Shown here in pieces: positions 42,362 through 42,820 of a stretch of 64,000 nt of DNA. The notes beneath the pieces were generated by a model that saw nothing but the letters and a program-made list of their open reading frames with translations, did no database searches and was not told the origin of the DNA. A program made the translations under genes and the position numbers. The DNA is taken from sequence record OQ067375.1, one strand, 5' to 3'. The stretch is from Escherichia phage a48. The first letter of the stretch is position 1, and each line of letters begins with the position of its first letter.

Positions 42362-42820
42362 TTATTTTAAATCATCTGCCCAATCGAGTTTAAGAGGCTC
42401 TTTGTATTCACGGTCAAGTACAACCGGAATTTGTACATCACCGCTAAATGATAAGGGCCCAACATTATAAGACAATGTTATATGCGGTGTGTAATCATCA
42501 AAATCGTGTGTAGCACCTAGTGCCCGCGCATACATGTGTCGACAGCGCAGATATTCAGAATCTAGCACAAGTACAAGAGTCGATCCATCTTGTGTTTTCC
42601 ACACTTCTAAATGTCCAGAAGAAGCTACTTCAAAACTTCCACTCGATGGAACATATGGAACATTTACTCTCGAATAACATATGGTCGAATGAATTTTTTC
42701 TCTAGGAACTGGATTAGGAACACGTAAAGAGCGCTGGAGTTCTTCCAGCGCGTCAAGTGTTAATTCTGAAAACTTAGCTGCTACATAAAGACCCGTTGAA
42801 AAGTCTTTAAATTCCATCAT
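42362..42820 (-). CDS. 57B: 57B / Acb1 anti-CBASS 2H phosphoesterase
   Basis: 152 aa; two H-x-T/S-x motifs (HSTI, HITL) of the 2H phosphoesterase fold; directly downstream of 57A as in T4. Confidence 0.82.

Follow-up and report, generated by a model that had tools for sequence, protein, structure and literature searches.

The analysed stretch of Escherichia phage a48 (hereafter the window, 64,000 nucleotides of sequence record OQ067375.1) almost certainly belongs to a T4-like phage (Tequatrovirus) in which the two anti-CBASS genes of T4, acb1 and acb2, both have an intact orthologue, as judged by sequence comparison. Its minus strand carries the T4-like gene series tk, vs, regB, e, tRNA cluster, internal-protein genes, 57B, 57A, 1, 3, 2, and 4, with baseplate genes following gene 4 on the plus strand. 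T4 gene order is kept at the acb1 locus (ip genes, 57B, 57A, gene 1, gene 3) as well as at the acb2 locus (regB, vs.3, vs.4, vs.5, vs.6). Among phage records, none proved identical to the window. Comparison of a 24-kb stretch with them returned many Tequatrovirus genomes as best matches, each of them piecewise and 95.5–97.1% identical. MLP2 is the best-matching phage around 57B (99.9%), and ECML-134 the one around vs.4 (98.0%). As the matches are piecewise and the best match differs between the two loci, the window represents a mosaic Tequatrovirus and not T4 itself.

The acb1 gene (57B) is located at positions 42362..42820 on the minus strand and encodes a 152-aa 2H-phosphoesterase, an assignment supported by the ORF, identity to T4, and matches to Pfam and PDB. 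The ORF starts with an ATG that overlaps the stop codon of 57A (ATGA), and its product is identical to T4 57B/Acb1 (NP_049750) at 152 of 152 residues, including the HxT/HxT tetrad and the lid region. On the DNA level, 449 of 459 positions (97.8%) agree with T4; the 10 nucleotide differences fall into 9 codons and all are synonymous. In Pfam, the protein matches PF23474 (Anti-CBASS protein Acb1) with an E-value of 2.7e-60 and 202.7 bits at a cut-off of 27, where residues 9–150 cover positions 1–144 of the 144-position profile. A search against solved structures identified Acb1 of Erwinia phage FBB1 (PDB 7T26/7T27; E 4.2e-62, residues 9–149, one 1-residue gap), and the corresponding gene is annotated as “anti-CBASS protein Acb1” in record PP355090.1.

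Two H-x-[TS] motifs, the sole ones in Acb1, were located at H44-S45-T46 (acb1 codons 44–46, positions 42683..42691, minus strand) and H113-I114-T115 (codons 113–115, positions 42476..42484, minus strand), the latter lying opposite “phitlsyn” in the alignment with 7T26. Both align with the motifs of 7T26 and of the distant Acb1 9Q2G. They coincide with the catalytic tetrad H44/T46/H113/T115 described together with the 2H phosphoesterase fold and a C-terminal lid by Hobbs 2022 (Nature 605:522, PMC9117128). The window protein is predicted to adopt the same 2H fold and to possess the C-terminal lid (residues 145–152), and its T4-type fold is deduced from the FBB1 homologue, with which roughly 70% of aligned residues are shared as read off the alignment. 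Published experiments on the identical T4 protein suggest that window Acb1 is catalytically active as well.

Existing database labels point at a different function. The RefSeq entry of T4 57B and the description of PHROG 755 both read “RNA ligase”, several phage records combine the two functions as “RNA ligase/cyclic nucleotide phosphodiesterase”, and a 2H fold with two HxT motifs is likewise common to LigT enzymes. On these grounds, 57B might belong to the LigT / 2′-5′ RNA ligase type and serve in RNA ligation or RNA repair, with an incidental anti-CBASS activity. However, at E<=0.01 Pfam yields the dedicated Acb1 family only and neither a LigT nor a 2′-5′ RNA ligase family, and the “RNA ligase” labels of RefSeq T4 and PHROG 755 are automated fold-level transfers that have been superseded. 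Moreover, T4 57B was isolated via activity-guided fractionation as the enzyme degrading 3′3′-cGAMP in infected lysates, and its H44A/H113A mutant, used as a catalytically dead control, no longer blocks CBASS effectors (PMC9117128). We therefore consider an RNA ligase function very improbable and identify 57B as Acb1.

As in T4, acb1 is placed downstream of 57A and upstream of ip gene(s), whereas two differences distinguish its surroundings: the upstream 57A product comprises 76 aa here and 80 aa in T4, and the downstream neighbors are two small internal-protein genes in place of ipI. T4 ipI, an anti-GmrSD internal protein, is absent at 41678-42377, and the two minus-strand genes found there instead lie at 41721-41966 and 42031-42288 and belong to PHROG 8111 and PHROG 3499. 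Their products have similar N-termini, MKTYQEFIAE and MKTFKEFATK, which presumably resemble the capsid-targeting leader of T4 internal proteins. A cassette of ~70 nt, which contains a promoter-like site as well as hairpin-like inverted repeats, is present three times (41678, 41976, and 42307), and a copy precedes each ip gene. The ip stretch beside acb1 corresponds to a region variable among T-even phages. On the strand opposite 57B, only unsupported ORFs of at most 61 aa were listed, which were rejected.

The second anti-CBASS gene, acb2 (vs.4), encodes an 88-aa cyclic-dinucleotide sponge at positions 31361..31627 on the minus strand, identified via T4 identity, PDB, Pfam, and PHROG. It is embedded between its neighbors, its start overlapping the stop codon of vs.5 (ATGATTGA) and its own stop overlapping the start of vs.3 (TAATG). 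A mechanical ORF list gave a 100-aa reading of vs.4 from a TTG at 31663; this was rejected in favor of the ATG at 31627, because the latter has a GAGGA Shine-Dalgarno sequence ~8 nt upstream and yields a product identical to the crystallised Vs.4. All 88 residues agree with Vs.4 of PDB 7UQ2 (E 1.9e-57) and with T4 NP_049728, whereas 258 of 267 nucleotides (96.6%) are shared with T4, the 9 differences being distributed over 9 codons and all synonymous. The protein matches the Acb2/Tad1 hairpin family of Pfam (PF24729, Acb2_Tad1_hairpin) with E 7.1e-20 and 71.4 bits (cut-off 27) over profile positions 1–58 of 58, and PHROG 717 with E 2.3e-32. T4 Vs.4/Acb2 is the subject of Jenson 2023 and Cao 2023, and reportedly also of Huiting et al. 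2023. PHROG 717 is the family with which Jenson 2023 gathered Vs.4 homologues (PMC10097602). The earlier note, made from the letters alone, had placed a 152-aa ORF with two H-x-T/S motifs at 42362-42820 and an 88-aa ORF at the vs.4 position at 31361-31627; coordinates and lengths were exact in both cases. Its assignment of 57B to Acb1 holds, with the catalytic histidines H44 and H113 both present and an alignment to T4 Acb1 of 152/152, and the reading of the vs.4-position ORF as Acb2 is borne out by an alignment of 88/88 to T4 Vs.4, so that the outcome in which this product proves unrelated to Acb2, or 57B lacks its histidines, was not observed.

All residues known for ligand binding and oligomerisation are in place in window Acb2, both those lining the pocket (Y8, H11, K23, R79, and F82) and those of the hexamer interface (L29, F33, A66, A73, and A77), as defined for the T4 protein (PMC10097602). 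Substitutions Y8A and F82C destroy Acb2 function (PMC12657218). T4 Acb2 binds cGAMP with a Kd of ~30 nM (PMC10097602) or ~84 nM (PMC10312549), and its hexamer takes up three cGAMP (PMC10097602, PMC10312549). From these experiments on the identical T4 protein, with which it shares cyclic-dinucleotide pocket and hexamer interface, we infer that window Acb2 sequesters cGAMP likewise. Acb2 of Pseudomonas phage PaMx33 (8H2J, 8IXZ, and related entries) belongs to the same Pfam family and shares the sponge mechanism, with a weak direct match (E ~0.03, residues 4–85). It differs in having a second pocket, in which cA3/cAAG are bound as well (PMC10312549). This broad-spectrum subtype is marked by the second pocket with an Arg where T4 has D61, and by a helix whose kink widens the pocket; window Acb2 does not belong to it. 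Instead, it contains the T4-type residues Y37, A57, L60, D61, and T64, to which Cao 2023 linked the lack of cA3 and cAAG binding by T4-Acb2 (PMC10312549). Given D61 and the other T4-type residues, window Acb2 should sequester cyclic dinucleotides alone.

In the proposed mechanism, Acb1 would function as a metal-independent 2H phosphoesterase that uses H44/T46/H113/T115 to cut the 3′-5′ bond located 3′ of adenosine in 3′3′-cGAMP, cUA, cAAA, and cAAG, and would thereby destroy the CBASS second messenger. Acb2 would assemble into a homohexamer whose inter-protomer pockets hold three cyclic dinucleotides, the ligand being contacted by Y8/F82 stacking and by H11, K23, and R79 with an expected Kd of ~30-84 nM for 3′3′-cGAMP. 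Signal held in this way would be kept from the effector, and with their partly complementary ligand ranges, the two proteins together would blunt most CBASS types. In published assays, Acb1 cleaves cAAA and cAAG, but not 3′2′-cGAMP, cUU, or cGG, whereas T4-Acb2 binds 3′2′-cGAMP, cUU, and cUG, but not cA3 (PMC10312549). Cao et al. pointed out that T4 harbors both genes and is hence broadly evasive (PMC10312549). When faced with a type II CBASS, a T4 mutant lacking both genes (Δacb1/Δacb2) was described as “exquisitely sensitive” (10.64898/2026.03.04.709575), and single and double acb knockouts were also constructed in the Panoptes study (PMC12657218). The view that the two genes provide two layers of anti-CBASS activity, put forward in the earlier note, has thus been published for T4 (PMC10312549; 10.64898/2026.03.04.709575) with proteins identical to those encoded here, and the deletion experiment that the note proposed has, by virtue of these T4 knockout studies, already been done.

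It may be argued that acb1 and acb2 are redundant instead of layered, both simply removing 3′3′-cGAMP, so that one of them would be enough. Indeed, 3′3′-cGAMP is acted on by Acb1 as well as by Acb2 (PMC9117128, PMC10097602), and T2 is a successful phage despite its disrupted acb2 (PMC12657218). Deletion of vs.4 alone lowers the titre ~50-fold on Cap2-mutant CBASS (PMC10097602), a drop showing that Acb1 alone gives incomplete cover. Against redundancy, the published ligand ranges of Acb1 and T4-Acb2 differ (PMC10312549), each gene is kept in >1200 phage records, and both are under strict purifying selection here. Plain redundancy is hence quite unlikely, and we favor two layers with partly complementary ligands.

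Selection on both genes was assessed by their differences from T4. Across acb1 and acb2, 19 of 19 nucleotide differences are synonymous, so that none of the 18 codons affected encodes another amino acid, a pattern of strict purifying selection. Both ORFs are genuine and not chance reading frames, the encoded proteins being 100% identical to those of T4 at DNA identities of 97.8% (acb1) and 96.6% (acb2). No feature of the sequence speaks against the assignment to Acb1 and Acb2. Both genes lie within tightly packed, overlapping gene strings. The neighborhood of the two genes was additionally scanned for regulatory elements: pattern scans for promoters and terminators around the acb1 and acb2 loci returned sites no more numerous than in shuffled sequence, with one exception, an obvious early-type promoter of regB a short way downstream of vs.3. 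Rfam identified nine tRNAs only in the window and no RNA family at the acb1 or acb2 locus.

Homologues of both proteins are widespread. In gene-by-gene tblastn counts, 1471 phage records contain Acb1 and 1231 contain Acb2; most are T4-like phages whose hosts are Escherichia, Klebsiella, Shigella, and their relatives, with the same genera for both. Co-occurrence of acb1 and acb2 is the norm in a Tequatrovirus. Natural losses of acb2 nevertheless exist. In T2 (LC348380.1), acb2 has a 2-nt deletion in codons 7–8 (~3100-3125 of the T2 stretch compared) leading to a premature stop, and the T2 Vs.4 product as annotated, which begins at a TTG instead, is devoid of the ligand-stacking Tyr8. This deletion agrees with a published remark that the Acb2 pocket is disrupted in T2, and a premature stop is likewise found in PaMx41 (PMC12657218). 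As the sponge activity of Acb2 triggers the Panoptes (OptSE) defence (PMC12657218), acb2 is a liability in some hosts, and the T2 gene was possibly lost under Panoptes pressure. One might ask on this basis, given that Panoptes selects for acb2 losses, whether the phage analysed here has silent or decaying copies of at least one of the two genes, as T2 has of acb2. We regard this as extremely improbable: unlike the T2 copy, window acb2 is intact, both genes are full-length ORFs with canonical ATG starts in an intact operon structure, and their products are identical to the functional T4 proteins with synonymous changes only.

Immediately downstream of acb2, the vs.3 gene (31083..31361, minus strand) encodes the 92-aa N7-cADPR sponge TadIV-1, identified by its identity to T4 Vs.3 and by PDB 9WIW (UPEC07 TadIV-1; E 2.6e-37). 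By its TAATG stop/start overlap, vs.3 appears to be translationally coupled to acb2. TadIV-1 (Vs.3) has been characterized as a dimeric N7-cADPR sponge that inhibits type IV Thoeris, with R17, R18, and K24 as its described residues and a requirement for the long form of the protein (Nat Commun 2026, PMC13243611). The window protein is of the long form (>80 aa) and comprises the N-terminal loop along with R17, R18, and K24; being identical to T4 Vs.3, it is predicted to bind N7-cADPR. TadIV-1 differs from Acb2 in its signal, N7-cADPR, and is not an anti-CBASS protein; with its dimeric state and flexible N-terminal pocket, it is also structurally distinct. Adjoining and overlapping as they are, acb2 and tadIV-1 form a tandem of two signal sponges within one gene block directed at host immune signals. 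The expectation that small ORFs nearby hold further counter-defence genes is met by vs.3 in its role as TadIV-1 and was at least partly known already (PMC13243611).

Directly upstream of acb2 lies vs.5 (31620..31841, minus strand), a 73-aa acidic ORF that matches PHROG 1986 over its full length (E 6e-43). The gene is intact here and in T2. In contrast, the T4 reference (NC_000866) has a 1-nt deletion that shifts the frame, resulting in an annotated 58-aa product (5382-5558 of the T4 stretch compared) that ends 36 nt upstream of acb2, whereas the 73-aa form overlaps the acb2 start. Full-length tblastn matches to the intact form were obtained in 986 phage records, down to ~43% identity. Searches with Vs.5 returned no relative among solved structures and no family in Pfam. 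The screen of Vs.3-Vs.8 in the TadIV-1 study used the frameshifted T4 allele of vs.5 only (PMC13243611). With the reference copy frameshifted, laboratory work with T4 may have missed a role of Vs.5: the intact 73-aa protein could act together with Acb2 or as an additional counter-defence factor. We consider this unlikely, yet conceivable because the vs.5 stop overlaps the acb2 start and the gene stands at the head of a vs.5-acb2-tadIV-1 string, conserved in ~986 records. If it were true, the three genes would constitute a cassette against host immune signals.

Taken as a set, Acb1, Acb2, and TadIV-1 constitute a T4-identical, intact complement of signal-removing proteins, from which the phage is predicted to resist type IV Thoeris and most CBASS types, but to be sensitive to Panoptes. 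Identity, structure, and mechanism of acb1 and acb2, their co-occurrence in T4, and the phenotypes of single and double knockouts are all already known, and the pair, a textbook feature of T4-like phages, raises no new question. In many database entries, these genes still go by “RNA ligase” or “hypothetical protein”, and the practical value of the assignments therefore lies in annotation correction.

Several neighboring regions deviate from T4. The block vs.8-denV-ipII-ipIII of T4 is rearranged at 33230-34129, where one internal virion protein of 157 aa (DUF7412, PHROG 3155) stands in place of ipII and ipIII, and the DNA of denV shares only about 77% identity with T4. At 38384-38845 (minus strand), a 153-aa ORF matches PHROG 2280 and has no Pfam match; in T4, nothing corresponds to the ~500-nt segment around it in the interval from e.8 to rnaC/rnaD. 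At 39315-40113, a gene for a segB-like homing endonuclease of the GIY-YIG type adjoins a tRNA-Tyr (40027-40113) that is missing there in T4. Since the listed 257-aa segB ORF overlaps this tRNA, the true segB start is probably located further downstream. According to a 2026 paper, T6 reportedly escapes Septu when SegB drives the amplification of a segment comprising tRNA-Tyr and segB. The adjacent tRNA at 40123-40199, called “Met (CAT)” by ARAGORN, aligns with the position of the annotated tRNA-Ile of T4 and is probably an Ile tRNA with a modified CAU anticodon, not Met. Two known T4 genes with recognizable domains lie close to the sponge genes on the minus strand: vs.6 (31841-32203), whose product is a glycyl-radical protein similar to GrcA (Pfam Gly_radical, E 3e-18), and tk.4 (29199-29678), whose product has a macro domain (Pfam Macro, E 6e-8) that could be relevant to ADP-ribose-based defences.
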